In this document: positions 18,458 through 58,404 of the stretch, piece after piece
How positions within the stretch are numbered: the stretch's first letter is position 1
Layout: each line of letters starts with the position of its first letter
Origin: Patescibacteria group bacterium
GTDB taxonomy: Bacteria; Patescibacteriota; Minisyncoccia; Phycocordibacterales; PALSA-1337
Length of the DNA: 64,000 bases
Assembly: GCA_038061795.1 (NCBI GenBank)
Contig: JBBTYL010000002.1
Location: 105,511 to 169,510 of the forward strand
Reading direction: 5' to 3'
Notes under the pieces: model-generated
The model's database searches: none
Seen by the model: the letters and a program-made list of their open reading frames with translations, nothing else
What the model was told of the DNA's origin: nothing
Made by a program: the position numbers and the translations under genes

Positions 18458-18499
18458 CAAGGTATGAAAATTAACAGCGAATTTTTTAATCAAAAGGAA

Positions 18500-18508: not shown

Positions 18509-18515
18509 AGGGAAT

Positions 18516-18962: not shown

Positions 18963-19002
18963 GATTTCTGGTAGTATAGGTTTCGTGCTCAGGAAGGGAA
19001 TT

Positions 19003-19073: not shown

Positions 19074-19102
19074 CAGATAACAGAGTAAGACATAGATAAA
19101 GC

Positions 19103-32134: not shown

Positions 32135-32150
32135 AGTGTTCAACACCCCT

Positions 32151-33899: not shown

Positions 33900-33916
33900 C
33901 TTTAAAAATAATTTTC

Positions 33917-35140
33917 ATGTCACATTTCATTTACAAAGCAAAGAAGCCGACTGGCGAAATATATAAAAGCGAAAAGGATGCGCAGGACCGCTACGAGCTT
34001 TATCGTATGATAAAGGAGAGCGGAGAAGAAGTCGTCGATGTCCAGGAAAAAGGCGCTGCGGGCTCTTTCTTCAAGATGCCTTCGCTTACCTTTTCTTTTC
34101 TCAATAACGTAAAGACGCAGGAGAAGATAAACTTTGCGCGAAATCTTGGATCCATGATCACTGCCGGGCTTGCTATGTCCCGCGCCCTTTCCGTCATGGA
34201 GCGTCAGACGAAGAACAAGGCGATGAAGAATATCCTCATTTCCTTACAGAAGGATGTGAGCGAGGGAAAGACATTGAGCACTGCAATGAGCAGCTACAAG
34301 AACGTCTTTTCCCCGCTGTTCATATCGATGGTTGCTGCGGGAGAGCAGAGCGGAAATCTCGCCGAGTCCCTCAAGATTGTCGGGCTCCAGATGGACAAGA
34401 ACTACGCGCTTCAGAGAAGGGTAAAAGGCGCCATGATGTATCCGAGCGTCATTCTCATTGCCATGGTCCTCATCGCCATCCTCATGCTTACCTATATCGT
34501 GCCGACGCTCATGAAGACGTTCACTGAACTCAAGCTGGATCTTCCTTTGTCTACGAAATTCGTGCTCTACACAAGCAATACGATACGTGACCACGGACTT
34601 GTCGTCTTTCTAGCCACCGCGGTGATTATCGGCGCACTCATCGTCTGGTCAAAGCGCGCAAGCGGAAAGAATGTCATCCATTATGCAATCCTCAAGATTC
34701 CAGTCATCGGAGGAATAATAAAGGAGGTGAATGCCGCGCGAACGGCGCGAACGCTCTCCTCGCTTCTCAATTCTGGCGTCGATGTCGTCGAATCGGTTCG
34801 CATAACGATGGACGTCATTCAGAATGTCCATTACAAGGATATTCTCAGAAGGGCAGGCGAGGCGATAAAGAAAGGAGATCCGATCTCGAAGATCTTCACG
34901 GAGAACGAGAAGCTTTACCCGCTTTTCCTCGGGGAGATGATGAATGTCGGGGAAGAGACCGGAAAAATCGGGGAGATGCTCATGGGGGTGGCGGTCTTTT
35001 ATGAGGATGATGTCGAGCAGAAGACGAAGGATATGTCGACCATCATCGAGCCGTTCCTCATGGTTTTCATCGGCGCGGCGGTCGGCTTCTTCGCTGTGGC
35101 GATGATTTCCCCAATGTATTCACTTGTAAATGTCATTTAG
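33917..35140 (+). CDS. pilC: Type IV pilus platform protein (PilC/GspF family)
   Basis: 407 aa. Duplicated GspF domain with 3 transmembrane spans. Motifs GLAMSRALSVM and the C-terminal PMYSLVNVI-type ending. Confidence 0.9.
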   Translation: MSHFIYKAKKPTGEIYKSEKDAQDRYELYRMIKESGEEVVDVQEKGAAGSFFKMPSLTFSFLNNVKTQEKINFARNLGSMITAGLAMSRALSVMERQTKNKAMKNILISLQKDVSEGKTLSTAMSSYKNVFSPLFISMVAAGEQSGNLAESLKIVGLQMDKNYALQRRVKGAMMYPSVILIAMVLIAILMLTYIVPTLMKTFTELKLDLPLSTKFVLYTSNTIRDHGLVVFLATAVIIGALIVWSKRASGKNVIHYAILKIPVIGGIIKEVNAARTARTLSSLLNSGVDVVESVRITMDVIQNVHYKDILRRAGEAIKKGDPISKIFTENEKLYPLFLGEMMNVGEETGKIGEMLMGVAVFYEDDVEQKTKDMSTIIEPFLMVFIGAAVGFFAVAMISPMYSLVNVI

Positions 35141-36908
35141 AAACAAAATAAAGCAAAATGGAAACAGGGCTTTTACCCTAGTCGAGACATTGGTAGGTGT
35201 CGCTGTTTTTCTCATAATCGCCACAGCCACTTATCAGGCATATGTCAGCCTTTTCGCTTTGATCAATCAGAACCAGTACAAGATACTCGGGCTCAATCTT
35301 GCAAACGAGCAGTTTGAGATTATCAGAAATCTCACATATTCCGATGTGGGAGTTCAAGGAGGGCTTCCGAACGGAAAAATTCCCCATGAGCAGACGCTGA
35401 CCAGGGGAGGAGTCGTTTTTAGTGTAACGATAACCATAAGAAACGTCGACCTTCCATTTGACGGTACCATAGGCGGTTCTCCGAATGACCTTTCTCCGGC
35501 AGACAACAAGCTCGTGGAGCTCGAGATAGATTGCCTTTCGTGCAATTCCTTTGCGCCTCTTTTCCTGACGACGACTGTCGCGCCGAAAGCTCTTGAGACA
35601 TCTTCATCGAATGGAGCGCTTTTCATCAGGGTGTTCGATGCAAACGGGGTAGCGGTCACCGACGCTGACGTGCATATAGTCAATACGCAGGCGAATCCTG
35701 ATATCATCATCGACGACGTGACCGATGCTGGCGGCATGCTTCAGATAATCGATGCGCCGCCGGGAGTCGAGGCTTACGAAATCACCGTCACAAAAGCGGG
35801 ATACTCGACAGCCCGCACCTACTCTCAGGCAGAGCTCAATCCATCAATTCCTAGCACCCCACACGCAACGGTGGTAGTTCAAAGTGTGACCTCGATCAGT
35901 TTTGCCATAGATCAATTGGCTTCGCTCGCCATTTCAAGCGTTGATCCATTTTGCGCCCCGGTCGGAAATTTTAATTTTTCTCTAAGAGGCACAAAAAATA
36001 TCGCTGCGAGCCCCGATGTCTCCAAGTATTATCAGAATCTTGCGACAAATGGTTCCGGACTGCTTAATCTTAATTCAATGGAATGGGGAACATACTTCTT
36101 TACTCCGACTGATACTGCTTATGATGTCGCCGGTTTCAATCCGCTCAATCCTGTCGCACTGAATCCAGGAGCCGCGCAGGAAAGTCAGATCATAATCGTA
36201 CCGCAAACCTCAGTCGGCTTATTGGTAACCGTGAAGGATTCTACCACTCAATTGCCTGTAGCAGACGCGGCCGTGACTCTTTCCAAGATCGGATATGACG
36301 AAACTAAGACAACTGGAAAGGGCTATATCATTCAAAGCGATTGGTCTGGAGCAGGTGGTTATACTGAAGAAATAGGGACGGACGAAACGGATCCTGTCGG
36401 GGAAATAAAATTGAAAAAAGTCTTTGGCTTGTACAACCCAGATGGCATTCTCATGTCCTCAACCATTGATACCGGCTCGGCAAGCAACTTTTATAATCTG
36501 ATCTGGGCGCCGTCAGGGGTTCCAGCGTCGACGACGCTCAAGTTCCAAATAGCGACAGCAACGACAACCTCTCCTGTTTCGTGGCAATTTCTCGGACCAG
36601 ACGGCACGCCAGCGACCTATTACGTTATTTCGGATTCCCCAATCAATGCTATTCATAATGGGGACCGGTACTTGCGCTACAAGGCATTTTTGCATACGGA
36701 TGACGGCTTAATAACTCCGAATATATCCGATGTTGCGTTTACCTTCACTTCATCCTGTACTCCCCCTGGCCAGGTTTTTTTCCAAGGAATCACGACAGAC
36801 AACTATGAGCTTGAGATTTCAAGAGCGGGGTACGATACGCAGAACATTTCGATTTCAATTGGCAGCGGGTGGCAGAATCAGGAAGTCATATTGCAAGCTT
36901 CTCCATAA
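35130..36908 (+). CDS. Giant pilin-like protein: class III (prepilin) signal plus repeated carboxypeptidase-regulatory-like beta domains
   Basis: The N-terminus NRAFTLVETLVGVAVFLIIATATYQAY is a prepilin-type signal with Glu at +5. It is followed by about 550 aa containing repeats such as VRVFDANGVAVTDADVHIVN...ITVTKAGYST, LLVTVKDSTTQLPVADAAVTLSKIGYD and YELEISRAGYDT. Overlaps pilC by 11 nt. Confidence 0.75.
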   Translation: MSFRNKIKQNGNRAFTLVETLVGVAVFLIIATATYQAYVSLFALINQNQYKILGLNLANEQFEIIRNLTYSDVGVQGGLPNGKIPHEQTLTRGGVVFSVTITIRNVDLPFDGTIGGSPNDLSPADNKLVELEIDCLSCNSFAPLFLTTTVAPKALETSSSNGALFIRVFDANGVAVTDADVHIVNTQANPDIIIDDVTDAGGMLQIIDAPPGVEAYEITVTKAGYSTARTYSQAELNPSIPSTPHATVVVQSVTSISFAIDQLASLAISSVDPFCAPVGNFNFSLRGTKNIAASPDVSKYYQNLATNGSGLLNLNSMEWGTYFFTPTDTAYDVAGFNPLNPVALNPGAAQESQIIIVPQTSVGLLVTVKDSTTQLPVADAAVTLSKIGYDETKTTGKGYIIQSDWSGAGGYTEEIGTDETDPVGEIKLKKVFGLYNPDGILMSSTIDTGSASNFYNLIWAPSGVPASTTLKFQIATATTTSPVSWQFLGPDGTPATYYVISDSPINAIHNGDRYLRYKAFLHTDDGLITPNISDVAFTFTSSCTPPGQVFFQGITTDNYELEISRAGYDTQNISISIGSGWQNQEVILQASP

Positions 36909-36911
36909 TAT

Positions 36912-37532
36912 ATGAAATTTTATTTTAAAAAAGGATTTACGCTCGTTGAACTCATAGTAGTCATTGGAATTTTGGGCTTGATCATGATCGGCGTCAGTAA
37001 TTTTCAAGTAGATGTGCTTGTGTATAATAAATATGCAGAAAATTCACTCTCAAGTGCGCAAGATGCAAGAAATGTTCTCAGGGTAATAGTAAAAGAGCTT
37101 CGCACCGCATCCCCAAGCAATAACGGGGCATACGCCATTGCTCAAGCGGCAACGAGCACCATAACGTTCTTCAGTGATACTGATGGCGATGGATTGAAAG
37201 AACAGATACGCTATTTTATCTCGACGACAACCCCCGTAACTTTGAAAAAAGGTTCTATCAAGCCTATAGGCTCACCCTCTGTGTACAGTCCTTCTGCCGA
37301 AGTCTTTTCAACCTTAGCGTATAATATAAAGAATGCTACTAGTACAGCACTGTTTGAATATTATGATAACGGCTACGCAGGTACGAGCAGCCCATTGACC
37401 CAGCCAGTGACAGTTACCAGCATTCGTCTGGTCAAGATCAATCTGATGATTGATGCTGATCCGAACAAGTCGCCGATTCCAAGGCTCTATACCTCTCAAG
37501 TAAGCTTAAGAAATCTAAAAGATAATTTATGA
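36912..37532 (+). CDS. Type IV pilin-like protein with a canonical prepilin signal
   Basis: MKFYFKKGFTLVELIVVIGILGLIMIG contains the KKG|FTLVE cleavage/methylation motif. At 206 aa it is the candidate major pilin of the cluster. Confidence 0.8.
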   Translation: MKFYFKKGFTLVELIVVIGILGLIMIGVSNFQVDVLVYNKYAENSLSSAQDARNVLRVIVKELRTASPSNNGAYAIAQAATSTITFFSDTDGDGLKEQIRYFISTTTPVTLKKGSIKPIGSPSVYSPSAEVFSTLAYNIKNATSTALFEYYDNGYAGTSSPLTQPVTVTSIRLVKINLMIDADPNKSPIPRLYTSQVSLRNLKDNL

Positions 37533-38956
37533 TATTAAAAAAAGGCCTTATTCTCGTCAATGTCTTGGTGTTCGGAGCCATTGCCATCATTGTCACAAGC
37601 GCCATGGTGAACTGGGGAGCAACCATGCTGAAAGATACGAAGCAGCTGAGTGCTCGAGAGCAGGCTTTTCAGATTGCTGAAGCCGGCATTGATTATTATC
37701 GATGGCATCTAGCCCACTCTCCCACAGACTATAAGGACGGCACGGCTACCACGACCAACGGCCCCTTTATCCATGATTTCGAAGATAAGGACGGAAACGT
37801 GATTGGCGCGTTCGAGTTGACCATAACTCCGCCGCTGATAGGATCTACGCTGGTGAAGATAGTTTCAAAGGGGACGGTCGTTGAGTATCCTTCAGTCTAT
37901 CGCAAGATTCAGTCAACGCTTGCCATACCATCCCTTGCGAAGTATGCAGTGGTAGCGAATGCCTTCATGAATTTTGGTTCAGGTACTGTCGTACAGGGTC
38001 CAATTCACTCAAATGGGGGAATACATTTCGATGGAATAGCATATAATATTGTTTCGAGCGCTGTTAACACATTTACCGATCCTGATGTCAATGCGACAAA
38101 ATGGGCCGTCTACACCACTTCAGGGAGCGATGATCCGAATCCTATGACGGCATTGCCTGTTCGCAATGATGTTTTTATGGCAGGAAGGCAGTTTCCATTA
38201 GCAGCGGTTGATTTCAATGCCCTCACAGCCGATTTATCAAATCTAAAGGCACAGGCAACTTCCAGCGGCGCATATTTCGCTCCGTCTGGCGCTCAAGGAT
38301 ACCATATAGTCCTCAATACGAATGATACGTTTACTATCTATACCGTAAACTCTTTAATAAATCTTACGGGATCTTGTGCGACAAATGCGACTGCTCAAAG
38401 CCAGTCAGGATGGGGATCGTGGAGCATCAATACCCAAAGCGCAGCCATAGGCACCTACGCATTTCCTTCAAACGGAATTATTTTCGTCGAAGACAATGTA
38501 TGGGTTGACGGGACTATAAATACGGCTCGTCTCACGATAGCAGCAGGAGTCTTTCCAGATGATGCAAGTACAAGGAAAAGCATTACAGTCAATAGTAATT
38601 TGCTTTATACGAATTATGACGGACAGGATGTCATTGCTCTTATCGCTCAAAAAAATATAAATGCTGGATTCAGCAGCCTCAATACGCAAAGAATCGACGC
38701 AGCGCTTGTCGCTCAAAACGGCCGCGCAGGAAGATATTATTATTCTACGAATTGCGGAACAGGGCATACAAGAAGCACACTGACGCTCTACGGCATGATT
38801 GCGACCAATCAGCGTTACGGTTTTGCCTATTCTGGCGGTACAGGATATACGACAAGAAACATTATCTATGATAGTTATCTTCTATATGGCCCCCCACCTT
38901 CATTTCCTCTGACTTCAAGCCAGTATACGACCCTCTCCTGGGAGGAGATTAAATAA
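37529..38956 (+). CDS. Pilus-associated protein with a non-canonical pilin-like N-terminus (PilX-like?)
   Basis: MILKKGLILVNVLVFGAIAIIVTSAMVNW has KKG followed by a hydrophobic helix, but no Phe at +1 and no Glu at +5. The large Gly/Asn/Thr-rich extracellular part suggests a beta-helix. Overlaps the upstream pilin gene by 4 nt. Confidence 0.6.
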   Translation: MILKKGLILVNVLVFGAIAIIVTSAMVNWGATMLKDTKQLSAREQAFQIAEAGIDYYRWHLAHSPTDYKDGTATTTNGPFIHDFEDKDGNVIGAFELTITPPLIGSTLVKIVSKGTVVEYPSVYRKIQSTLAIPSLAKYAVVANAFMNFGSGTVVQGPIHSNGGIHFDGIAYNIVSSAVNTFTDPDVNATKWAVYTTSGSDDPNPMTALPVRNDVFMAGRQFPLAAVDFNALTADLSNLKAQATSSGAYFAPSGAQGYHIVLNTNDTFTIYTVNSLINLTGSCATNATAQSQSGWGSWSINTQSAAIGTYAFPSNGIIFVEDNVWVDGTINTARLTIAAGVFPDDASTRKSITVNSNLLYTNYDGQDVIALIAQKNINAGFSSLNTQRIDAALVAQNGRAGRYYYSTNCGTGHTRSTLTLYGMIATNQRYGFAYSGGTGYTTRNIIYDSYLLYGPPPSFPLTSSQYTTLSWEEIK

Positions 38957-40904: not shown

Positions 40905-43055
40905 ATGCCGCAAAAAATCATTAAGCGTGATGGGAAAGAGGTTGATTTTGAAGAGAAGAAAATAGAGCGTGCGATAAGGAATGCGGGAGGCGCGACGCAG
41001 GAATTCGATGGAAAAGTCGCGAAAGTTCTTGCAAAACAGGTCGCTCAGATCATGAAGGCATCGCTCAAAGAAAAAACCGAGAAACATGTTCCTCGGGTAG
41101 AGGAAATTCAAGACATTGTTGAGAAAGTTTTGATGCAGTCTCGCTACAAGAAGACGGCAAAGGCATATATTCTCTACAGGGCACAGCATGCTGAGATGAG
41201 GGCGTTTGCGACTGCTGCCTCGCTTGGACTTATTGATAACTACCTAGAAAAACTTGATTGGCAGGTCAAAGAGAATAGCAACATGGGCTACTCTCTTCAG
41301 GGTCTTAACAATTATATCTTTTCTGAAGTCAGCAAGACGTATTGGCTCAACAAGATTTATCCTCGAGAAATCAGGGAGGCTTATGAAAATGGAGATCTTC
41401 ATCTTCACGATCTTGGAACGCTTTCCATTTATTGCGTCGGTTGGGATCTTCTAGACCTCCTCACGGAAGGCTTCCGCGGAGTTTCTGATAAGATCGAGTC
41501 CGCTCCTCCGAAGCATTTTCGAACAGCGCTCGGCCAGGTCGTGAATTTCATGTACACGTTGCAAGGCGAGGCAGCGGGCGCGATTGCTTTTTCGAACTTC
41601 GATACGCTCCTTGCGCCATTCATCCGCTATGACGGACTTACTTCGGACGAGGTGAAGCAATCCCTTCAGGAATTTGTTTTCAACATGAATGTTCCGACCC
41701 GTGTCGGATTCCAGACCCCGTTTTCAAATATCACTCTTGACCTTACGCCGTCGCCGAATTTCAAGAAGACGAAGGTTATCATCGGCGGAAAGCCTCAGAA
41801 TGAAACCTACTCAGAATTCCAAAGAGAAATGGATATGCTCAACACTGCGTTTTTCGAAGTGATGAGTGAAGGAGACGCCGCAGGAAGGGTATTCACATTT
41901 CCGATTCCTACCGTAAATGTCACGAAGGACTTTGATTGGGACAATCCGAATCTTAAAGGCCTATGGGAAATTACAGCGAAGTATGGCGTTCCGTACTTCA
42001 GCAATTTCGTGAATTCCGATATGAAGCCAGAAGATACTCGCTCAATGTGTTGCCGTTTAAGGCTAGATCTTGAAGAGCTTGATCGAAGAGGGGGAGGCCT
42101 TTTCGGAGCCAATGCGCTAACAGGGTCAGTCGGCGTGGTTACGATCAACCTGCCTCGCCTCGGATATCTCGCACAAGGAAAGGGAAAGGATAAAGGAAAG
42201 AAAGCTTTTTACAAGCTTCTTGCTGAGAAGATGGATATTGCAAAAGAAAGCCTTGAGATCAAGCGAAAGATTCTTGAGCGATTTACCGATGCGAACCTGT
42301 ACCCATACACGAAGTTTTACCTCAGGAAAATCAAGCAATCATACGGCGAGTATTGGAAAAACCATTTCTCGACGATCGGCCTTGTCGGCATGAACGAAGC
42401 CGCGTTAAATCTTATCGGCTGTGATATCGGCCATGATGAAGGAAGAAAATTTGCTGGTGAAGTACTTGATTTCATGAGAAAGAGGCTCGTCGGCTATCAG
42501 AAAGAGACCGGAAATCTTTATAATCTCGAGGCAAGCCCAGCTGAGGGAACTGCATATCGCCTCGCGCTTAAAGACAAGAAGCTTTATCCAGACATCATCG
42601 TTGCAAATGAAAGCGACTTTACAAACGGCGCACAGCCATTCTATACGAACTCATCCCAGCTTCCGGTGAATTACACTACTGACATAATTGAGGCGCTTGA
42701 TATACAAGACAATCTCCAGACAAAATATACCGGAGGAACCGTGGTTCATCTTTTCTTGGGAGAGCGTATCGCCGATGCCTCATCAGTGCCGTCCCTTGTT
42801 AAAAAAATCTGCGAAAATTATAAATTGCCATATTTCACTTTGACTCCCACATTCAGCGTCTGTTCTTCTCATGGATATATCGCAGGAGAGAAGCATACGT
42901 GTCCGACATGCAACGCTGCGTGCGAAGTTTACTCCCGAGTCGTTGGTTATCTTCGGCCAGTCAGCCAATGGAATGCCGGCAAGCAGGAAGAGTATAAGCT
43001 TAGAGACACATTCGTCCCAGAAGTCGAATTGAAGGCATCTGTTAAATCGCATTAA
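40905..43055 (+). CDS. nrdD: Anaerobic (class III) ribonucleoside-triphosphate reductase
   Basis: N-terminal ATP-cone (IIKRDGKEVDFEEKKIERAI), C-terminal Zn site CPTCNAAC and the glycyl-radical motif SRVVGYLRP. 716 aa. Confidence 0.95.
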   Translation: MPQKIIKRDGKEVDFEEKKIERAIRNAGGATQEFDGKVAKVLAKQVAQIMKASLKEKTEKHVPRVEEIQDIVEKVLMQSRYKKTAKAYILYRAQHAEMRAFATAASLGLIDNYLEKLDWQVKENSNMGYSLQGLNNYIFSEVSKTYWLNKIYPREIREAYENGDLHLHDLGTLSIYCVGWDLLDLLTEGFRGVSDKIESAPPKHFRTALGQVVNFMYTLQGEAAGAIAFSNFDTLLAPFIRYDGLTSDEVKQSLQEFVFNMNVPTRVGFQTPFSNITLDLTPSPNFKKTKVIIGGKPQNETYSEFQREMDMLNTAFFEVMSEGDAAGRVFTFPIPTVNVTKDFDWDNPNLKGLWEITAKYGVPYFSNFVNSDMKPEDTRSMCCRLRLDLEELDRRGGGLFGANALTGSVGVVTINLPRLGYLAQGKGKDKGKKAFYKLLAEKMDIAKESLEIKRKILERFTDANLYPYTKFYLRKIKQSYGEYWKNHFSTIGLVGMNEAALNLIGCDIGHDEGRKFAGEVLDFMRKRLVGYQKETGNLYNLEASPAEGTAYRLALKDKKLYPDIIVANESDFTNGAQPFYTNSSQLPVNYTTDIIEALDIQDNLQTKYTGGTVVHLFLGERIADASSVPSLVKKICENYKLPYFTLTPTFSVCSSHGYIAGEKHTCPTCNAACEVYSRVVGYLRPVSQWNAGKQEEYKLRDTFVPEVELKASVKSH

Positions 43056-43058
43056 AAT

Positions 43059-43748
43059 ATGGTTTTCGGAGGATTCGAAAAATGCACGCTGATAGACTAT
43101 CCCGGCAAAGTCGCCTGCATGGTCTACACGATTGGCTGCAATTTTCGATGCCCGTATTGCCATAATCCCGAACTCGTTGACGAAACCGTTGAAAACAAGA
43201 CGAATGAGAGCGATATTTTGAAATTTCTTGAAAAAAGGAAGAAAATGCTCGATGCAATTGTGATTACAGGAGGCGAACCGACAATGCATGGCAGAAAGCT
43301 TCTTTCTTTCATGAAGAAGGTCAAGAATCTCGGCTTTCTGGTCAAGCTGGACTCGAACGGCACGAATCCTGATTTTATCAAAGAAGCTCTTGATAAAAAG
43401 CTTGTTGATTATATTGCGATGGATATAAAGTCTCCGCTTTCGAAATACAGCCAGACAGTAGCAAGGCCGGTCGATATCAGCAACATACGCAAGAGCATAA
43501 GACTTATTATGGACTCATCAATCGAATACGAGTTTCGGACGACTGTCATAAAAGCGCTTCTTTCGCCTCAGGATTTCGATGAAATCGGCCGTGAGATCAG
43601 CGGAGCAAAGAAGTTCTTTCTGCAGAAATTCATCCCGACAAAACTGCTCAACCCCCAGTTCAGGAAGAAGGTCACGTATTCTGATGACGAGTTCTCCCTA
43701 TTGCAAGAAAAAATGAACAACTATGTTGCATACTGCGGAATCCGCTAA
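43059..43748 (+). CDS. nrdG: Class III RNR activating enzyme (radical SAM)
   Basis: CNFRCPYCHNPE radical-SAM cluster motif and GGEPT. Located immediately after nrdD. Confidence 0.9.
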   Translation: MVFGGFEKCTLIDYPGKVACMVYTIGCNFRCPYCHNPELVDETVENKTNESDILKFLEKRKKMLDAIVITGGEPTMHGRKLLSFMKKVKNLGFLVKLDSNGTNPDFIKEALDKKLVDYIAMDIKSPLSKYSQTVARPVDISNIRKSIRLIMDSSIEYEFRTTVIKALLSPQDFDEIGREISGAKKFFLQKFIPTKLLNPQFRKKVTYSDDEFSLLQEKMNNYVAYCGIR

Positions 43749-46106: not shown

Positions 46107-46436
46107 ATGAAATTGTCAGAAAGGAAAAACATGCAGACGGTCCTTCCGAAAGAAGCGTATGAAAAGAACGCGCTTATTTACAAGATTCTTGCCAACCCCA
46201 AACGTCTCGAAATTCTAAATCTGCTCAAGAAGCAGGAGACTTCAGTCGAAGATCTCTTGAGGATAACCAAGCTTCCCAAAGCGAACCTTTCTCAACATCT
46301 TGCGCTTATGCGCCACAACGGCCTTGTTATCCCTCGCCGTTCCGGGCTCAATATCTACTACAGCATCATTGATCCTCGAATAGTGGAGCCTTGCAAGATT
46401 CTTCACGAGCTTCGCCATCAGGACCTTGTAGTCTAA
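46107..46436 (+). CDS. ArsR/SmtB-family transcriptional regulator
   Basis: IYKILANPKRLEILNLL...SVEDLLRITKLPKANLSQHLALMRHNGLV is the canonical ArsR winged HTH. Confidence 0.8.
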   Translation: MKLSERKNMQTVLPKEAYEKNALIYKILANPKRLEILNLLKKQETSVEDLLRITKLPKANLSQHLALMRHNGLVIPRRSGLNIYYSIIDPRIVEPCKILHELRHQDLVV

Positions 46437-46795
46437 CCTAAATTCTCAACTATTAGTTTTTTATTTGTTTCAAAATCTTTTTTATCTCCAGAAACTTTGT
46501 TGTCCGGGAAGACCCATATATGCGCATGATGAACTTCTTCACCAACTATTTTGCTTAAGACAAATTCAGTATTGAAAGCTTTTTTTTGTGCTAGGGCAAT
46601 CTTTTTTACAACTTCAAAATACTCGCCGGCATTTGGAACATCCCAAACCCATCTGTAATGTTGTTTAGGAATTATAAGGGTATGTCCTGGAGACATCGGA
46701 TCAATGCTTAGAAAGGCGAGAAAGTGAGTATCTTCATAGACGACGTGAGCAGGTATGTCTTTTTTTACTATCTTGCAAAAAATACAGTTTTCCAT
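46433..46795 (-). CDS. HIT-family (histidine triad) nucleotide hydrolase
   Basis: MENCIFCKIV... and the HHAHIWVFP histidine triad. Only the C-terminal 120 aa of the 290-aa track ORF look like HIT. The ATG at 46795 lies 6 nt after TGCTATAAT (46810-46802, minus strand). Confidence 0.85.
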   Translation of the reverse strand: MENCIFCKIVKKDIPAHVVYEDTHFLAFLSIDPMSPGHTLIIPKQHYRWVWDVPNAGEYFEVVKKIALAQKKAFNTEFVLSKIVGEEVHHAHIWVFPDNKVSGDKKDFETNKKLIVENLG

Positions 46796-46801
46796 GCAGC
46801 T

Positions 46802-46821
46802 ATTATAGCAGATGGTATACT
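46802..46821. promoter_or_regulatory. Back-to-back divergent extended -10 promoters in the 33-bp HIT/recJ spacer
   Basis: Minus strand: TGCTATAAT (46810-46802), then 6 nt, then the ATG at 46795. Plus strand: TGGTATACT (46813-46821), then 7 nt, then the ATG at 46829. The two boxes are 2 nt apart. Confidence 0.55.
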
Positions 46822-46828
46822 GGTATCC

Positions 46829-48523
46829 ATGCCGAAATATCAAGTGAGGGAAAAGATAGATGGCGATTTCATTGATAATCTGCTCTTTCATCGAGGAATC
46901 AAAACTGCAGAAGAAAAGATGGCTTTTCTCAATCCTGATTACGACAAGCATGTTTATGACCCCTTTTTGCTGAAAGATGCTGAAAAAGCCGCAAAAAGGA
47001 TAATTAAAGCCATTGAAAATGATGAAAAAATAGTCGTCTATAGCGACTATGATGCCGATGGAATTCCTGCAGGAGTCATTTTCCATGATTTTTTCAAGAA
47101 AATCGGCTTTAAGAATTTTACGAATTATATTCCACACAGGCATGATGAAGGTTTCGGCCTCAATGATGATGCTGTCTCTCAGTTTGTTGACGATAAAGTA
47201 AAGCTCCTTATTACGCTTGATTGTGGGATTGCAGACATTGCTGCTGTGAAGCTCGCGAAAAAGGGGGGAATTGATGTCATTATTACAGATCATCACGAGC
47301 CTCATGAGAAGCTACCGCCAGCCTTTGCGATCGTCGATCACAAGCAGAAGGATTGCGAGTATCCTGAAAAAATCCTTTGCGGTTCAGGAGTCGGATATAA
47401 GCTAATCCAGGCGATTCTTAAATCAAACAGGTTTGGGCTTAAGGAGGGCTATGAGAAATGGCTGCTCGATATGGTCGGACTGGCGACGCTTTCTGATATG
47501 GTTCCGCTAACTGGGGAGAATCGTGCATTGGCGCATTTCGGCATGCGAGTCTTGAAAATGAGTCCCCGCAAGGGCCTTATGAGATTGCTTGGGCATTTGA
47601 AAATTCCGCAGAAGCATCTGACAGAAGACGATATCAGCTTCATGATCACTCCGCGCATCAATGCCGCTTCCCGCATGGGCGTTCCGATGGACGCTTTCCG
47701 CTTGCTTGCTACGGACGATGACCATGAAGCCCACGAATACGTACAGCATTTGGACAAGATAAATAATGAGAGAAAGGGAACTGTCGCGGCATTGGTAAAG
47801 GAAGTGAAGAAAATAATTGCTGAGCGTCACGCAGACAATCCTCGAAATGTGATTGTGGCTGGAAATCCCGGATGGCGACCATCGTTGCTTGGACTAGTTG
47901 CCAACAATCTCGCAGAAGAATATGGAAAGCCTGCGTTTTTGTGGGGAAGGGACGGCGATGGCGTGATAAAGGGGTCCTGCCGTTCTGGCGAGACGGTTAG
48001 CGTTGTTGATCTAATGCACAAGGCACCAGTAGGGACTTTCTTGCAATACGGCGGGCACTTCGCTTCCGGCGGCTTTGCGGTTTCAAACGAAGCGATACAT
48101 CACCTTGATGATCATCTCAATTCTGCTTTTGATTTGCTTGCGAAAGAAGATAAAGTAATCGATCCAGATTTCATCGATATGGAGCTTCTGCTTGATGACG
48201 TGAATTGGAATTCGTACGGAAGCGTCGAGAAGCTTGCACCGTTCGGCGTCGGGAACAAGAAACCGACATTCCTTTTTAAGGACATTAAGATTGTTGGAAT
48301 AAAGGAATTCGGAAAAGAAAAAAATCATTTGGAATTGAATTTCAAAAAAGAGAATGGCCAAAGCGTAAATGCCATGGGATTTTTCATGACAGCTGATCTA
48401 TTTAAGAACAAGAAGGGCGAAACGATAAAGCCGACAGATTCGATTGACCTTATCGCTACTATGGAAAAATCGATATTCCGCGGCAAGACAGAGCTTAGGC
48501 TGAGAATTGTTGATATACTATAA
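46829..48523 (+). CDS. recJ: Single-stranded-DNA-specific exonuclease RecJ
   Basis: DHH motifs VYSDYDADGI, TLDCG and ITDHHEP, plus DHHA1 GGHFASGG. Start moved from the track's 46724 (which overlaps HIT) to the ATG at 46829. Confidence 0.9.
   Translation: MPKYQVREKIDGDFIDNLLFHRGIKTAEEKMAFLNPDYDKHVYDPFLLKDAEKAAKRIIKAIENDEKIVVYSDYDADGIPAGVIFHDFFKKIGFKNFTNYIPHRHDEGFGLNDDAVSQFVDDKVKLLITLDCGIADIAAVKLAKKGGIDVIITDHHEPHEKLPPAFAIVDHKQKDCEYPEKILCGSGVGYKLIQAILKSNRFGLKEGYEKWLLDMVGLATLSDMVPLTGENRALAHFGMRVLKMSPRKGLMRLLGHLKIPQKHLTEDDISFMITPRINAASRMGVPMDAFRLLATDDDHEAHEYVQHLDKINNERKGTVAALVKEVKKIIAERHADNPRNVIVAGNPGWRPSLLGLVANNLAEEYGKPAFLWGRDGDGVIKGSCRSGETVSVVDLMHKAPVGTFLQYGGHFASGGFAVSNEAIHHLDDHLNSAFDLLAKEDKVIDPDFIDMELLLDDVNWNSYGSVEKLAPFGVGNKKPTFLFKDIKIVGIKEFGKEKNHLELNFKKENGQSVNAMGFFMTADLFKNKKGETIKPTDSIDLIATMEKSIFRGKTELRLRIVDIL
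48511..48519 (+). promoter_or_regulatory. Extended -10 promoter (TGATATACT) inside the recJ 3' end, 7 nt upstream of the rnhA ATG
   Basis: TGnTATAnT motif. It overlaps the last recJ codons (stop at 48521-23). Confidence 0.45.
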
Positions 48524-48526
48524 TCC

Positions 48527-49015
48527 ATGAATAACGGCACAATTACGATTTTTACTGACGGTTCATCGCGAGGAAACCCTGGTCCTGGAGGCTGGGGAGC
48601 GATTGTTGTTTCTGAAACCACTGTGAAGGAGCTCGGCGGAAGGGAGGATATGACGACGAACAATAGAATGGAATTGCTTGGTGCAATTGAATCTTTAAAT
48701 TCTGTCGACTCAGCAGATTCAATTATCCTCCATTCTGATTCCCAATATGTAATAAAAGGCATGACAGAATGGATTGCTGGCTGGCAGAAAAGAGGCTGGA
48801 GGAACTCTCAGAAAAAAGCCGTATTGAATCGTGATCTTTGGGAAAGGCTTCTCGAGGCGTCTGAAGGAAAAAATATCAAATGGATGTATGTGAAAGGCCA
48901 TGCAGAAAATCCTGGGAACAATAGGTGTGATGAAATAGCTACGACATTCGCTGATAATGAGCCTACTAGGCTCTACGAAGGAACCCCTTCTGGTTACTCG
49001 GTAAAAATTCACTAG
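48527..49015 (+). CDS. rnhA: Ribonuclease HI
   Basis: IFTDGSSRGNPGPGGWGAIV, NNRMELLGAIESL and DSQYVIKG motifs, which carry the DEDD catalytic residues. Confidence 0.9.
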   Translation: MNNGTITIFTDGSSRGNPGPGGWGAIVVSETTVKELGGREDMTTNNRMELLGAIESLNSVDSADSIILHSDSQYVIKGMTEWIAGWQKRGWRNSQKKAVLNRDLWERLLEASEGKNIKWMYVKGHAENPGNNRCDEIATTFADNEPTRLYEGTPSGYSVKIH

Positions 49016-49045
49016 AAATTCATCTCAACCTGCTAGGCTAGTTGG

Positions 49046-50407
49046 ATGAATCATAAGAAGTTTAATTTTATTCTCATAATTGTCTTACTTGCGACAATTT
49101 GCACGCGGGGCTATTTTGCTTTTGATAGGGGTAATCGTGATGCGATGGTTGAGAAGTATTCAGGCCAGACAGTTGAAGTGCTTGGAGTTATTTCTGATGA
49201 GCCATTGGTAAAGGATTTTACTAAGACATTTACAGTGCGCGCAGAAAAAATAAATAGTGAAACAGAGAATGTTTCACTTCGCGTACAGACAGAAAGATAT
49301 CTTGATTTCGAATATGGACAAAAGATTATTTTAAAAGGGAAATTGTCTGCGCCATTCAATTTCAAAAGCAATGGAGGAAGGACATTTGATTACATCAACT
49401 TTCTTCTGAAGGATGGGATTTATTTCGAAATGAAGAAGCCTGTGATTGAGATCGTCGGCGAAAGGGAAGGAAGCATCATTTCAAAAACACTTTTCAGTAT
49501 CAAGCAGGGATTTCTTGGAAATATAAAGAAAGTCTTAGGTGAGCCTCACGCCGCCCTCGCAGGCGGACTTGTGGTTGGGGAGAAGAGCGCGCTTGGGAAA
49601 GAATTAATCGATGATTTTAGGATGGCAGGACTCATACACATCGTTGTGCTTTCTGGCTATAACATCACAATCGTCGCAGATTCGATTAGGAGAATCCTAG
49701 CTTTCTTGCCAAGGACTATCGGCATCATCCTTGGCGGTTTGGGAATCGTTAGCTTTGGAATCCTGGTAGGAGGCGGGGCAACTGTCGTACGTTCGTGCAT
49801 CATGGCTGTGATTGCTCTCTTCGCAACGCTTTTACGAAAGGATTACAATGTCGGCAAAGCGCTCTTTATTGCTGCAGCGCTTATGCTTATTCAGAATCCC
49901 TTGATACTGTTTTACGATCCGTCCTTCCAGCTTTCGTTTCTTGCGACATTCGGCCTGATCCTTCTTTCGTCTCCGATAGAGAAACGGCTTGGATTCATAA
50001 CGGAAAGATTCGGAATCAGGGGACTTGTGGCTTCGACGCTTGCGACCCAGATATTTGTTTCGCCCTACATCCTCTACATGATGGGACAACTGTCGATCAT
50101 CGGAATGGTTGTAAATATTCTTGTTTTGCCAATTATTCCTACAACGATGCTTTTTGTTACGCTTACCGGATTGTTCGGTTTCGTCTCGACGTTCATATCG
50201 GAAATAACAGGATGGGTTTCCCATATCCTGTTATCCTATGAGCTTATGATGGTCCGCTTCTTCGCGCATGTACCTTTTGCCTCAATCAATCTTCCGAAAT
50301 TTTCCTTCTGGATAGTCGTTGGATTCTACGCCAGCTATTTCGTCGCGCTTGCGAAATTTCCCTCGACGATTTCCCAATTCAAGTTTTGGAAAAAATCTTC
50401 CACATAA
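49046..50407 (+). CDS. comEC: ComEC/Rec2 DNA-uptake channel: N-terminal OB-like (DUF4131) and competence domains only
   Basis: N-terminal transmembrane segment plus OB-like region, then the polytopic competence domain (LAGGLVVGEKS..., HIVVLSGYNITIV). It ends without the usual C-terminal metallo-beta-lactamase domain. Confidence 0.85.
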   Translation: MNHKKFNFILIIVLLATICTRGYFAFDRGNRDAMVEKYSGQTVEVLGVISDEPLVKDFTKTFTVRAEKINSETENVSLRVQTERYLDFEYGQKIILKGKLSAPFNFKSNGGRTFDYINFLLKDGIYFEMKKPVIEIVGEREGSIISKTLFSIKQGFLGNIKKVLGEPHAALAGGLVVGEKSALGKELIDDFRMAGLIHIVVLSGYNITIVADSIRRILAFLPRTIGIILGGLGIVSFGILVGGGATVVRSCIMAVIALFATLLRKDYNVGKALFIAAALMLIQNPLILFYDPSFQLSFLATFGLILLSSPIEKRLGFITERFGIRGLVASTLATQIFVSPYILYMMGQLSIIGMVVNILVLPIIPTTMLFVTLTGLFGFVSTFISEITGWVSHILLSYELMMVRFFAHVPFASINLPKFSFWIVVGFYASYFVALAKFPSTISQFKFWKKSST

Positions 50408-50883
50408 TTCTTCTTTCCTGACGGCTGGTAATCTGCTACGTAAGAGTGTTCCCACATATCGAGTGCAAGAATGAGGGGGCAGTCCTGAAGCTGGCTGATA
50501 TGCTGTTCTTCCACCCAGGCGCTGATGAGGGCCTTTTGTTTTGCATCATAGTAGAGCATTGCCCAACCGATACCTCGCGTGAGAGCGATTGCCTTGAAGC
50601 TCGCAAGCCATCCGTCAAAAGATCCGAAGTCAGCTTCTATCTGCTTCTTAAGCGCACCATTTGATAGCGTTCTCGCTCCTCCTTCTAGGCTTGAGAAATA
50701 AATTTCATGATTTCTCATACCGTTGTATTCGAAGCCGAGGCGGCGGACATCTTGCTTGCCTTCGATAGTTTCGTTGAGATTCTTAACATAGCCGGCATAG
50801 AGTTTGAGATGCTCCTCGATCGTCTTTGTGGAAATGCCTTTGAGGGCGGGGATATCAAATTTTTTTTCTGTGTATGTTGTCAT
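50335..50883 (-). CDS. Fe/Mn-family superoxide dismutase (compact form)
   Basis: FDIPAL...TIEEH (ligand-His context), MRNHEIYF (NH motif), and LDMWEHSYVADY (D..H ligands, compare DVWEHAYY). 182 aa. The 3' end overlaps the comEC 3' end by 73 nt (convergent). Confidence 0.85.
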   Translation of the reverse strand: MTTYTEKKFDIPALKGISTKTIEEHLKLYAGYVKNLNETIEGKQDVRRLGFEYNGMRNHEIYFSSLEGGARTLSNGALKKQIEADFGSFDGWLASFKAIALTRGIGWAMLYYDAKQKALISAWVEEQHISQLQDCPLILALDMWEHSYVADYQPSGKKNYVEDFFQNLNWEIVEGNFASATK

Positions 50884-50935
50884 GGATTTTCATTAAATTC
50901 ATTAAAATTTCACTCGACTTATATATGATTGTAGC

Positions 50936-51706
50936 ATGGATTTTTTCAAGAAAAATTGGAAGTGGCTTTTTGTGGCTCTGGCGCTAGCTTCCTTAGGATT
51001 GGGCTTTTATATCTGGAAATGGGAATTCAGAGAGCCCTTGCTTGAGGTGCATTTCTTTAGCCTGAACAAAGGCCGCTCCATTTTTGTCAGAACTTCAGAA
51101 AGCAAAACCATTCTTATCGGAGGAGGGCAGAACTCGGAAGTTATTCGAGAAATTACCAATGTGCTGCCGTTTTATTCCCGCAAGATTGATTATGTACTTA
51201 TTCCAAGTGCTGTTCCCGCGCAGATCGGCGGACTAATCGAGGTGATTGATAGGTATGAAGTTGGGGAAATCATCATGCCGAAACTCTTAGCTACAAGTAC
51301 TGTCCTTACGCAACTTATGAAAGAAGTCAGAAAGAAAAAAATTCATATTGAAGAAGTTGAAAAAGGAGACGATATAGAAATCGGCGGAGCCAAACTCGAA
51401 GTCCTTTTTCCATATGAAGAATTCAAATTCAACAAAAGCAGCCTGCCAGAATTAGGGCTAGAGATTTCTTACAAAGATACTTCTGCATACCTGATGGGGA
51501 ATTTATCAAAAACAATTCAAAAGGATATTCTGAAAAACACTGAAATTAATAAAGGCGAAAATATAATCGAATTCTATAACAGTATGGCAGACGGGAAAGT
51601 TTATAAAGAGCTGGTGGAGGCAATTGATCCGAGGTTCATTTTTTCAACGAATGAGAAAGCCGCCACGATGATATCGGACGGGGAAGGGTGGCGAAAAGAA
51701 AGATAG
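50936..51706 (+). CDS. Stand-alone ComEC-type metallo-beta-lactamase-fold domain with all metal ligands substituted
   Basis: N-terminal transmembrane segment. LLEVHFFSLNKGRSIFVRT..TILIGGGQ aligns with the ComEC l.v.flDVGQGDa...LiDgG motif. IDYVLIPSAVPAQIGGL aligns with iD.liLTHxHxDHiGGl. DVGQGD has become SLNKGR, and HxHxDH has become SAVPAQ. Confidence 0.6.
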   Translation: MDFFKKNWKWLFVALALASLGLGFYIWKWEFREPLLEVHFFSLNKGRSIFVRTSESKTILIGGGQNSEVIREITNVLPFYSRKIDYVLIPSAVPAQIGGLIEVIDRYEVGEIIMPKLLATSTVLTQLMKEVRKKKIHIEEVEKGDDIEIGGAKLEVLFPYEEFKFNKSSLPELGLEISYKDTSAYLMGNLSKTIQKDILKNTEINKGENIIEFYNSMADGKVYKELVEAIDPRFIFSTNEKAATMISDGEGWRKER

Positions 51707-53128: not shown

Positions 53129-53158
53129 TCAGAAAATTATCATCGCCGAACAAACAAA

Positions 53159-53198
53159 GGCACGGATTCCAAGCGGGGTCCGTGCCTGATTTTATTTA
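53159..53198 (+). terminator. Intrinsic terminator after the chorismate mutase gene
   Basis: GGCACGGA-ttccaagcgggg-TCCGTGCC forms an 8-bp GC-rich stem (53159-53186) followed by TGATTTTATTTATT. Confidence 0.6.
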
Positions 53199-53226
53199 TT
53201 GACAAAAATTTCTATCGGAGTAAGAT
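53199..53226 (+). promoter_or_regulatory. Sigma70-like promoter with no ORF behind it
   Basis: Consensus -35 TTGACA (53199-204), a 16-nt spacer, then TAAGAT (53221-26). The predicted transcription start at about 53233 leads straight into a long hairpin, not a start codon. Confidence 0.45.
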
Positions 53227-53577
53227 ATTCCCAGTCCCTGATTTCGTTTGTCGGGAAGGAAAACGGTTCACCCCGTTTTGACTACCGAGATCAGGCTAGG
53301 TCATTGGCACGACTTGCCAAGATTGGATCTAGAAGGCCTAAAATGGCTGGTTATCTATACCTCCTTGCGTCATGGCGAGATACTATCTCCGCCTAGCAGT
53401 CACCTCAATCAAAAGAAAAGGGTGTGCAAAAATAGAAGTTTCAGATTCGTATGCTGGATCATCGATTTACGACAAAGTTGACTCGCAAGAGCAAAGTCGC
53501 ATCTTGGTTCGTCAACAGCGATGTAGGCGTCCAATAGGATCCGTTCCTATCGAAAAATTACCTTTCCACGGTTTTCC

Positions 53578-53615
53578 AAAGCGCGTTTCCTGCAAGGATT
53601 CGCGCTTTTCTTTAT
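53578..53615 (+). terminator. Intrinsic-terminator-like hairpin about 150 nt upstream of rpsL
   Basis: AAAGCGCG-tttcctgcaaggatt-CGCGCTTT forms an 8-bp stem followed by TCTTTAT. Confidence 0.5.
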
Positions 53616-53759
53616 ATAATTTACCTTTTCCTCCTTATATGCTAGAGTAACCCCACGTTCAAATAGAGCTTAGAGGTGAGTAACCGCTTGGTGAAAACAA
53701 TCAACTCTTTGCAGAATTGAGCCCCATTATCAGGTTTTATTAAAAAATTAATATAAAGA

Positions 53760-57014: not shown

Positions 57015-57554
57015 ATGATTGAAATTCTCCGTTACGCGGATAACTACCTAATCGTGTTTTTCTTCCAGCCGGTGTCTCGGCTTTTCCAGAAGAAAACCGG
57101 CCTCAATAACTTCTTTCTTGCTCGTCTATTCTTGGCGATTTATGCCACGTTCATGTTTAGTGGCATGTCGAGAATCGAGGGTATTCCTATCGGGGCGTAC
57201 TTATTTCCCGCAATCATTGTTCTCGGCGGACTGATCATTAGCGTGGAAGAGGAGAAGTTGCAGCGCGATGGCGACAAGAATGATCCACCCCTAGGAGGCA
57301 TGCGCCGAAGGGTCATTTTCATCACAGCACGGCTGATTTTTGTTTTCGCAGTGGTGAAGTTTGTTCTCGGATACTTGACTGACTTCCGAGACTGGTCAAC
57401 GTTCATATACACTCTCACCCGCCTGCTCCCGCTGCCGTTCTTTCTCTTCTTCTGTGCATGCGTACCTTCCGGCAAAGAGGGAAACAAGTTTCTGGAATTC
57501 AGAGACAAGATATGGACCAAGGCGCGCACTTGGCTCAAGGATGAATTCGATTGA
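57015..57554 (+). CDS. Polytopic membrane protein (about 4 TM), unknown function
   Basis: 179 aa with four hydrophobic spans. It is preceded by TTGACT (56944-49), a 17-nt spacer, then TAATTT. No family recognised. Confidence 0.6.
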   Translation: MIEILRYADNYLIVFFFQPVSRLFQKKTGLNNFFLARLFLAIYATFMFSGMSRIEGIPIGAYLFPAIIVLGGLIISVEEEKLQRDGDKNDPPLGGMRRRVIFITARLIFVFAVVKFVLGYLTDFRDWSTFIYTLTRLLPLPFFLFFCACVPSGKEGNKFLEFRDKIWTKARTWLKDEFD

Positions 57555-57571: not shown

Positions 57572-57598
57572 AAAGCGCCTTGTTTATGCGGGCGCTTT
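57572..57598. terminator. Bidirectional terminator hairpin between convergent genes
   Basis: AAAGCGCC-ttgtttatgcg-GGCGCTTT forms a perfect 8-bp stem flanked by A and T runs. Confidence 0.55.
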
Positions 57599-58404
57599 TA
57601 ATTTGGTGTCGAGAAGAAAGGGAACTCCCCAATCAGTTCTTCTGAATTATAAAAACTTTGCGCAAGTCCCCCGAAGCTATAACTAGTTCCGTTGATTTCA
57701 ATTTCAGCCCCGCCGATCTGAGGGATTGCCTTAGGCTTTGAATTTGCGAACCCGATGTTGTAGAGGGTTGAAACTATACCTGCGTTGTTGCTGATTGAGA
57801 AACCAGCGTGCTCCCACTGCTTCTCGATCTGAGCAATAAAAAGCGCCCCGTAAAGATATGAAAAGTATCTATCGTCCTCGTCCGTGAGCCGCTCGAACCT
57901 TTCCTTGTCGGGATTGTCAGTCTTGAAATTCAAGACATGCTCAAAATTTGGCCCGAGATAAAATGGGGAAGTCCTGTCTTTCAGATTATTCTCGATTTCA
58001 ATCGCTGTCTCCTGCTTTATGCCCATCACGCCCCAAGAAAATTGGCTCTGGTTGCCTAGGATTTTAAGGGGAGCAAACACTTTCTTGAAGACTTCTCGTT
58101 CGGAATAGAAAAGACGGAGCTGTTCTACGACGAGAGGATTGACAATCATGCGAGCAGGAATGCCGGTCTCTAAAGCGACTCTATTTATGACGGCGGAATC
58201 CTTCCTTATTGCTTTTTCGAGAATAAGCCATTCCTCGCTCTTTGACCAAGAATTCTCGTCTACCAGATCTTGGAAATAGTCACGTTGCGTGTCAACCACG
58301 CCTTTTGTTCTCGTCCAGCCGAGTTCTACAGACAAGTATCCAAGCATAAGAAAGAGGCCGACAGCGGCGAATACATAGACCAGGAAGCTGAATATTTTTT
58401 TCAT
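57598..58404 (-). CDS. Membrane-anchored extracytoplasmic protein, unknown function (weak lytic-transglycosylase-like motif)
   Basis: N-terminal anchor (FSFLVYVFAAVGLFLMLGYL). SQFSWGVMGIKQETA loosely resembles the SLT motif S.aGA.GLMQi.p.Ta, but this is too weak for a call. Confidence 0.6.
   Translation of the reverse strand: MKKIFSFLVYVFAAVGLFLMLGYLSVELGWTRTKGVVDTQRDYFQDLVDENSWSKSEEWLILEKAIRKDSAVINRVALETGIPARMIVNPLVVEQLRLFYSEREVFKKVFAPLKILGNQSQFSWGVMGIKQETAIEIENNLKDRTSPFYLGPNFEHVLNFKTDNPDKERFERLTDEDDRYFSYLYGALFIAQIEKQWEHAGFSISNNAGIVSTLYNIGFANSKPKAIPQIGGAEIEINGTSYSFGGLAQSFYNSEELIGEFPFFSTPN

Follow-up and report, generated by a model that had tools for sequence, protein, structure and literature searches.

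In a Patescibacteria group bacterium (assembly GCA_038061795.1; GTDB lineage Bacteria; Patescibacteriota; Minisyncoccia; Phycocordibacterales; PALSA-1337), the DNA-uptake protein ComEC is encoded by two genes separated by a superoxide dismutase gene (sod) on the opposite strand. The second of the two, open reading frame 2 (ORF2), specifies the C-terminal metallo-beta-lactamase (MBL)-like module, which appears catalytically dead by every sequence criterion and which, we conclude with high confidence, is a retained, ligand-free, split-off module of ComEC. The analysis covers 64 kb of contig JBBTYL010000002.1 (positions 105,511-169,510 of the forward strand, hereafter the window), and coordinates are those of the window unless the locus of a relative is named. 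What is new here is the conserved pseudo-nuclease family to which ORF2 belongs, the order of events, in which the split came before the ligand loss, and the separate encoding of the ComEC C-terminal module in bacteria of the candidate phyla radiation (CPR).

ComEC is encoded as two genes

The genes and features of the locus, with protein lengths in amino acids (aa), are the following.

49046-50407, plus strand: comEC-N (ORF1), 453 aa, OB fold (DUF4131) and Competence channel domain
50335-50883, minus strand: sod, Fe/Mn superoxide dismutase, 182 aa, convergent with comEC-N and divergent from ORF2
50335-50407, no strand assigned: antiparallel overlap of the 3' ends of comEC-N and sod, 73 nt
50902-50929, plus strand: promoter-like TTAAAA-16-TATGAT, from a consensus scan, pattern only
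50936-51706, plus strand: ORF2, anchored ComEC beta-lactamase-like module, 256 aa
50939-51025, plus strand: N-terminal membrane-anchor helix of ORF2, residues 2-30, from DSSP on the AlphaFold2 model and alignments

An earlier reading of this DNA (the original prediction) had described a split comEC with a convergent sod in the gap, and an ORF check returned all three ORFs at exactly the coordinates, strands and lengths that it gave. Between the comEC stop and the first base of ORF2 there are 528 bp, in agreement with the figure of about 530 bp given there, and the sod and comEC 3' ends do overlap by 73 nt.

The ORF1 protein matches DUF4131 (E 1.4e-13, residues 5-130, above the Pfam cut-off) and Competence (PF03772, E 1.1e-49, residues 175-435), and the Pfam scan found no MBL domain in it, in keeping with the prediction that the 453-aa ComEC ends after the channel. 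It aligns with residues 143-483 of the solved full-length ComEC 30bt, and its end falls after the penultimate transmembrane helix of ancestral ComEC. A protein with 100% identity to it, P0275, carries the name 'ComEC/Rec2 family competence protein [Patescibacteria group bacterium]'. Among the best 120 ORF1 homologues a fused PF00753 domain is absent, and 119 of them span 426-463 aa, the exception being a 352-aa Competence-only sequence on a 1.2-kb contig.

The ORF2 protein has no Pfam match, and Lactamase_B (PF00753), which its intact standalone relatives do match, is not found even at E up to 1. It does match positions 410-559 of the 663 in the ComEC_Rec2 model TIGR00361 (E 1.9e-4), with 19.7 bits compared with 84.7 bits for ORF1, neither reaching the equivalog cut-off of 190 bits. 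It aligns with the MBL domain of ComEC 30bt (residues 515-711, E 1.2e-5) and with the Moorella glycerini ComEC domain 9ic4 (E 4e-4), and a profile built from intact-motif standalone relatives only matches it over residues 6-234 with E 4.2e-49 and with the motifs in register. An AlphaFold2 model built with 28 family members (predicted local distance difference test, pLDDT, 91.5; predicted template modeling score, pTM, 0.87) begins with a helix at residues 2-30, after which comes an alpha-beta/beta-alpha domain. The best solved-structure match of this model in Foldseek is 9ic4 (E 5e-16, template modeling score 0.75), and the next matches are to Pce/CbpE (2bib/1wra), Pce being the closest known structural relative of the ComEC beta-lactamase-like domain (PMC12455585). 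On these three independent lines, profile, model and Foldseek match, ORF2 is a homologue of the ComEC C-terminal module. The alignment with the ComEC MBL domain that the original prediction reported therefore stands. With regard to the profiles it had named, the ComEC-specific ones and the fold match support it and Pfam Lactamase_B gives nothing.

The predicted anchor of ORF2 is likewise seen, as helix 2-30 of the model with the uncharged stretch L11-W27 inside it, and, since residue 13 of ORF2 stands opposite residue 515 of 30bt, this helix is by alignment the equivalent of the last transmembrane helix of full-length ComEC. With ORF1 matching 30bt residues 143-483 and ORF2 matching it from residue 515, the two genes tile the ancestral ComEC, as expected of the gene fission that had been proposed, and the break lies in the loop preceding the last transmembrane helix, in an ancestor within the Parcubacteria/Paceibacteria.

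ORF2 has lost the nuclease active site

The remnants of the catalytic motifs in ORF2, located by alignment, are as follows.

51059-51076, plus strand: motif I remnant S42-L-N-K-G-R47, replacing D-V-G-Q-G-D
51206-51223, plus strand: motif II remnant S91-A-V-P-A-Q96, replacing H-x-D-x-D-H
51422-51454, plus strand: family-specific loop F163-K-F-N-K-S-S-L-P-E-L173 where other ComEC modules have the motif III (Asn) loop, opposite 'NnsSiv' of the intact relatives
51500-51502, plus strand: N189, replacing the metal-bridging Asp of motif IV (D700 in M. glycerini)
51575-51589, plus strand: motif V remnant Y214-N-S-M-A218, replacing G-H-H-G-S

The alignments with 30bt and 9ic4 place DVGQGD opposite SLNKGR and HPDADHIGGL opposite SAVPAQIGGL, with the IGGL and GGG flanks kept, and so the motif replacements with retained flanks that were originally described are visible there. 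In the M. glycerini ComEC domain, H598, D600, D602, H603 and D700 are needed for nuclease activity by mutagenesis, and H598A, D602A, H603A and D700A nearly abolish it; D602 is the general base, H725 and S728 contact the substrate, and transformation is abolished in the corresponding metal-ligand mutants of Legionella pneumophila ComEC (PMC12455585). At the positions of H598, D600, D602, H603, D700, H725 and S728, ORF2 has S91, V93, A95, Q96, N189, N215/S216 and A218, respectively. The motif I aspartates are replaced by S42 and R47, and the Mn2+ ligands of motifs II, IV and V are all replaced. Every ligand required in the mutagenesis (PMC12455585) is thus missing, which bears out the proposal of a pseudo-enzyme.

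In addition to these substitutions, about 55 residues downstream of motif V, containing an NxYGHP 'pin loop', are deleted in the ORF2 subfamily. In L. pneumophila ComEC, a double mutant in loop 2 (R688, F689, F691) abolishes transformation, and the published equivalence of L. pneumophila S662 with M. glycerini S728 provides an offset by which, with no superposition, the NxYGHP loop would map to this loop 2, residues 682-694. ORF2 keeps the invariant P78-F79-Y80, probably the counterpart of loop 1 of L. pneumophila ComEC. With all Mn2+ ligands and the motif V His and Ser replaced and the pin loop deleted, ORF2 cannot be a metal-dependent nuclease.

The module is retained under selection

The ratio of nonsynonymous to synonymous substitution rates (dN/dS), estimated by the Nei-Gojobori method on unsaturated pairs only, is 0.29, 0.34, 0.06, 0.11 and 0.14 in five pairs for ORF2, compared with 0.08-0.10 for comEC-N, which indicates strong constraint, and 0.03-0.08 for sod. 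ORF2 is under purifying selection that is more relaxed than that on comEC-N or sod. A full-length ORF2 is intact in all 36 loci examined, down to 44% identity, and so neither of the signs of decay that the original prediction had named, frameshifts in relatives or a dN/dS near 1, was found. The family numbers at least 148 members with 51-81% identity, all standalone and of about 255 aa, and its ligand-free members come from at least 35 species-level genomes of a Taylorbacteria-type clade. NCBI labels the members 'hypothetical protein', and the family could now be named.

Conservation was analyzed across 119 sequences and 219 positions, 50 of which are former active-site loop positions. Fifty-four positions are at least 95% conserved, and 23 of these lie in the former loops compared with 12.3 expected (p 1.3e-4); the mean entropy of the five former loops is 0.63 bits, compared with 1.38 bits elsewhere (p 4e-7). 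Residues conserved at this level include S42, L43, G46 and R47 of the motif I remnant, P90, S91, A92 and Q96 of the motif II remnant, and K164, N166, K167, S169, P171, E172 and L173 of loop 163-173; N189 and a GNLSK motif are also conserved. Family-specific conserved motifs are FKFNKxSLPEL, GNLSKTIQK and ATSTVL, and the former ligand positions are now held by invariant Lys, Arg, Asn, Gln and Ser. Conservation of the ligand-replacing residues and of the new loop motifs shows that selection maintains the pocket for something other than metal binding. Taken together with the size of the family and dN/dS values of 0.06-0.34, the finding that constraint is strongest in the former loops indicates a retained pseudo-enzyme and not a remnant.

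Spread of the split and order of events

When 1.84 billion cluster representatives were searched with a profile, 10,565 relatives came up at E up to 1e-3. Of these, the best 150 are about 100-400 aa long, the shortest being fragments, and no fused full-length ComEC occurs among the 150. The profile of intact modules matched at least 7,238 clusters, the best 120 of which are all 273-313 aa. Many of the intact modules are named 'ComEC/Rec2 family competence protein' by NCBI and JGI, in Parcubacteria, Nealsonbacteria and Paceibacterota. The ComEC split is therefore ancient and very common in the Parcubacteria/Paceibacteria and is not peculiar to the source genome, and it is already visible to annotation pipelines.

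The relatives fall into three grades by motif: an intact set with DVGQGD, THPDxDH, TGD and HHGS; a large and diverse eroded set with from six down to zero ligand positions left; and the subfamily of the window, which is the most completely stripped of the three. A rough neighbor-joining tree places the intact modules in one clade and the degenerate forms, with 0-6 ligand positions, in the other, a separation that is suggestive and to which long-branch effects may contribute. The original prediction had asked whether the split and the ligand loss are conserved in relatives. Both are: the split is found widely in the Parcubacteria/Paceibacteria, and the ligand-free form recurs in at least 35 species-level genomes.

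Gene context allows the events to be ordered. The distant ligand-free relatives P0129 and P0146 lie in the context recJ-rnhA-comEC-N-sod(-)-module-rpmB. Intact modules at loci L040, L042 and L043 also lie downstream of a DUF4131+Competence gene, in the context comEC-N ... MBL ... rpmB/M50/rpsL, and the gap holds sod and two small ORFs in L040, two unrelated minus-strand genes in L042 and two small ORFs in L043. The presence of intact standalone modules in the same context implies that fission preceded ligand loss, and the intact module of L040, with sod in its gap, implies that the sod insertion also preceded ligand loss in at least one lineage.

Insertions seem to be frequent in the gap between the comEC halves, which looks like a hot spot for them. 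In L003 an extra 133-aa, Pfam-negative ORF (4461-4862) lies between sod and the MBL-like gene, and the two small ORFs of L040, 147 and 91 aa, stand on either side of sod. At the other end of comEC-N, a PemK-like toxin-family gene (130-161 aa) separates it from rnhA in L001 (2636-3121) and L003 (1977-2369), and the window has only a 30-nt spacer there (49015-49046) and no PemK-like gene.

The sod gene, the overlap and the promoter region

The position of sod is that of a historical insertion between the ComEC halves. Its product matches Sod_Fe_C (E 6.9e-24) and, below the cut-off, Sod_Fe_N (PF00081; E 1.8e-3, 19.2 bits compared with a cut-off of 27). Alignment with 1coj shows that the four metal ligands (H, H, D, H) are kept; the N-terminal hairpin domain is short and divergent, and the second His of the HxxxH pair is missing. 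The source genome also encodes an oxygen-sensitive anaerobic ribonucleotide reductase, NrdD/NrdG (40905-43748).

In the window comEC-N and sod share exactly 73 nt, and the same length recurs at 33 of 34 loci of relatives in which both genes are present. Read as its reverse complement, the comEC stop codon (TAA/TAG) falls on the Asn-Tyr codon junction in the superoxide dismutase motif NYVEDFF, and the ComEC tail SQFxFxKKSST is what NYVEDFFxNLNW gives when read antisense. The constancy of the overlap thus follows from conservation of the superoxide dismutase C-terminus, and the ComEC tail is probably a passenger. We rejected a functional reason for the constant overlap, since this antisense reading accounts for it fully.

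Upstream of ORF2, the promoter-like TTAAAA-16-TATGAT ends 6 nt ahead of the ATG, with no Shine-Dalgarno motif. TATGAT or TATAAT with the 6-nt spacer is kept in L001, L005, L006, L007, L009 and L016, and promoter consensus matches in the region number 12 compared with 6.7 expected. Of the leaderless-type promoter that had been assigned to ORF2, then, the sequence pattern, its conservation in close relatives and the missing Shine-Dalgarno motif hold up, and the promoter itself is putative, a consensus match only. The divergent start codons of sod and ORF2 are 52 nt apart (50884-50935), and in many relatives (L010, L013-L032) the distance is 0-16 nt; with start codons back to back, the two promoters must interpenetrate, each lying inside the coding sequence of the other gene. 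Read-through from comEC-N into ORF2 would run antisense to all of sod.

Function of the ligand-free module

The explanation that we favor overall, and hold to be probable with a fair measure of doubt, is that ComEC was split and that its C-terminal module is kept as a non-catalytic partner of the channel. ORF1 carries the OB fold and the single-stranded DNA channel, and the ORF2 domain would, by homology with solved ComEC, lie on the outer face of the membrane beside the OB fold and the channel mouth. There ORF2, tethered to the membrane, would most likely persist as a partner of the ORF1 channel that has no catalytic part. At the entrance of the channel it might bind something or hold it in position, and the DNA backbone and the OB fold are plausible candidates. 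The second DNA strand would then be removed by an unrelated nuclease or perhaps not at all. That ORF2 is still a subunit of the DNA-uptake channel, which supposes an association with ORF1 that we infer, we judge to be an evenly balanced proposition. It would be reasonable to expect DNA uptake to proceed without the ComEC nuclease or with a substitute nuclease. That a large clade keeps the module after losing every catalytic residue argues for a non-catalytic role, or for a different form of DNA uptake in these nucleotide-auxotrophic bacteria.

A more specific suggestion, which we offer only tentatively, is that ORF2 may be an obligatory subunit of a two-piece ComEC whose former metal site, lined by invariant Lys and Arg, grips the DNA backbone. 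If this were true, the C-terminal domain would have an essential structural role in import that is separable from nuclease activity, DNA import in the clade would involve no degradation of the second strand by ComEC, and the intact, partly eroded and stripped modules in one gene context would form a natural series for dissecting that role.

Several considerations weigh against a channel partner. The rate at which ORF2 evolves is about three times that of ORF1 and sod, and its topology and outer-face location are predicted purely by homology. The whole block, sod and rpmB included, is equally conserved, which makes synteny weak evidence. The case for a simple role as a retained pin loop or DNA guide, or in separating the strands, is weakened because the essential L. 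pneumophila loop 2 maps, by the offsets given above, to the NxYGHP segment that ORF2 has lost. Finally, no substitute secreted nuclease or second MBL gene was found within the window. The sole EEP-family protein there (14104-14898) is ExoIII-type by appearance. Nine sizeable ORFs of the window have no Pfam match at E 1e-5 (226-1890, 8928-9941, 17014-17577, 27825-28730, 30081-31217, 31289-31981, 37529-38956, 57015-57554 and 57598-58404), and each could in principle be an envelope nuclease.

Among the alternatives, the one that survives best, and which we nevertheless consider rather unlikely, is that the anchored MBL-fold protein was recruited to an unrelated envelope function, for example with another ligand in the remodeled pocket, and stays beside comEC-N only through stable gene order. 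Such a recruitment would agree with the replacement of the catalytic motifs by new invariant ones (FKFNKxSLPEL, GNLSKTIQK and ATSTVL), with the faster evolution of ORF2 than of ORF1, with the loss of the pin loop, with the equal synteny of the unrelated sod and rpmB, and with transcription of ORF2 divergently from sod and not jointly with comEC-N. It sits less well with the finding that, among loci with enough flank, ORF2 never occurs without comEC-N, with the retention of the anchor helix and of the overall ComEC-module fold, and with the continuous series from intact to eroded modules in one gene context.

It is improbable that ORF2 is still a hydrolase or nuclease with a non-canonical site of conserved Glu, Lys, Arg, Asn and Ser, acting independently of metal or with another ligand set. 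Conservation is indeed highest in the former active-site loops, which contain many invariant residues of polar or charged character (R47, K164, N166, K167, E172, S191, K192, Q195, E212 and Y214). Against this, we know of no metal-free MBL-fold nuclease. The five canonical ligand positions are lost, the equivalent of the general base D602 among them, and single substitutions at these ligands already abolish the canonical activity (PMC12455585).

Still less credible is a decaying pseudogene remnant of the ComEC C-terminus left behind by the sod insertion, an idea to which the missing Pfam match and the loss of all catalytic motifs might lend some color. It is refuted by the intact ORFs at 36 of 36 loci, the dN/dS values and the 54 positions conserved over 119 sequences, and a confidently folded model and a relative with sod in the gap that keeps an intact module (L040) also speak against it. 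That a single comEC gene merely looks divided, through a fault of assembly or a frameshift, has the adjacency of the halves in its favor and nothing further, and it is refuted by the complete, conserved opposite-strand sod that separates them and by recurrence of the arrangement in independent assemblies from NCBI, JGI, ENA and Logan, which leaves it a negligible probability.

Genomic surroundings

The window also holds a type IV pilus cluster (32136-38956), about 10-17 kb upstream of comEC, with the following genes.

32136-33899: PilB-type ATPase
33917-35140: PilC-type platform protein
within the cluster: 592-aa protein with a weak CarboxypepD_reg match only
36912-37532: pilin-like gene with an N-methylation motif
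37529-38956: 475-aa ORF, Pfam-negative

A Mg-chelatase/YifB-type AAA+ protein is encoded at 6930-8459 on the minus strand and belongs to the family of the competence helicase ComM. The pilus genes (pilB, pilC and the pilin-like gene) and the ComM-like gene fit a DNA-uptake lifestyle. A UvrD/PcrA-type helicase gene (3581-5551, minus strand) adjoins the ComM-like gene.

Elsewhere in the window, four tRNA genes (Arg-TCG, Gly-GCC, Pro-TGG and Gly-TCC) lie within 1.5 kb (17581-19074), a region with two gaps of about 550-600 nt that have no ORF of at least 150 aa and no Rfam match. About 630 nt upstream of rpsL (53129-53759) likewise have no convincing ORF or Rfam match, and the equivalent interval in relatives holds variable genes (an HD-domain protein and small ORFs). 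The listed 290-aa ORF at 46433-47305 (minus strand) and the 599-aa RecJ ORF at 46724-48523 (plus strand) overlap by about 580 nt; the genes called at this place in relatives specify a HIT-family protein of 120 aa and a RecJ of 564 aa and do not overlap, and the long versions in the window are probably upstream extensions to spurious starts.

Comparison with known systems

The two genes of the window together resemble canonical ComEC/Rec2, as represented by the Bacillus subtilis protein, the Neomoorella carbonis cryo-EM structure 30bt and the M. glycerini domain 9ic4, in having an OB fold, a Competence channel and a last transmembrane helix with a beta-lactamase-like domain in the same order, but here these are two polypeptides from two genes with sod between them. 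Since the Mn2+ ligands, the H725 and S728 equivalents and NxYGHP are missing from ORF2, it cannot have the nuclease activity shown to be indispensable in L. pneumophila and B. subtilis. A second comparison is with the standalone ComEC C-terminal modules found in the Parcubacteria/Paceibacteria, proteins of about 285-300 aa with a PF00753 domain to which NCBI and JGI give the label 'ComEC/Rec2 family competence protein' or 'MBL fold metallo-hydrolase'. These modules share with ORF2 an N-terminal anchor, an MBL domain and a place downstream of a DUF4131+Competence gene. The intact ones keep DVGQGD, HxDxDH, TGD, HHGS and NxYGHP, whereas the ORF2 family has none of these.

Catalytically inactive MBL-fold subunits occur in other nucleic-acid machines, where CPSF100 is found with CPSF73 and INTS9 with INTS11. 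ORF2 is like CPSF100 and INTS9 in being an MBL fold without metal ligands that would be kept as a non-catalytic subunit, the role proposed here. It differs in that CPSF100 and INTS9 pair with an active MBL paralogue, and no active MBL partner of ORF2 was found in the window.

Within the ComEC proteins themselves, the precedent is that of Streptococcus pneumoniae, in which the C-terminal domain has substituted metal ligands and is nevertheless retained, EndA degrading the strand (PMC8579336), and in which this domain has been suggested to serve as a DNA guide (PMC8579336, PMC12455585). ORF2 resembles it as a ligand-substituted ComEC domain that has been kept. The S. pneumoniae domain, however, is fused and has only three ligands changed conservatively, whereas ORF2 is a separate protein and has lost all of them non-conservatively, and no EndA-like gene was identified within the window.

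Taken alone, ORF1 is a ComEC of the DUF4131+Competence ('DC') profile, as in Helicobacter pylori, and CPR ComEC has been reported to have no MBL fusion (Pimentel & Zhang 2018; Meheust et al. 2019). In those surveys the MBL domain of DC-profile proteins counts as absent, but here, and widely in the Parcubacteria, it is encoded a gene or two downstream. About half of ComEC proteins have been scored as having no nuclease domain, and how the second strand is handled in those cases is an acknowledged open question (PMC8579336). Because the MBL domain of the Parcubacteria/Paceibacteria is a separate anchored protein, surveys of ComEC by domain profile undercount it.

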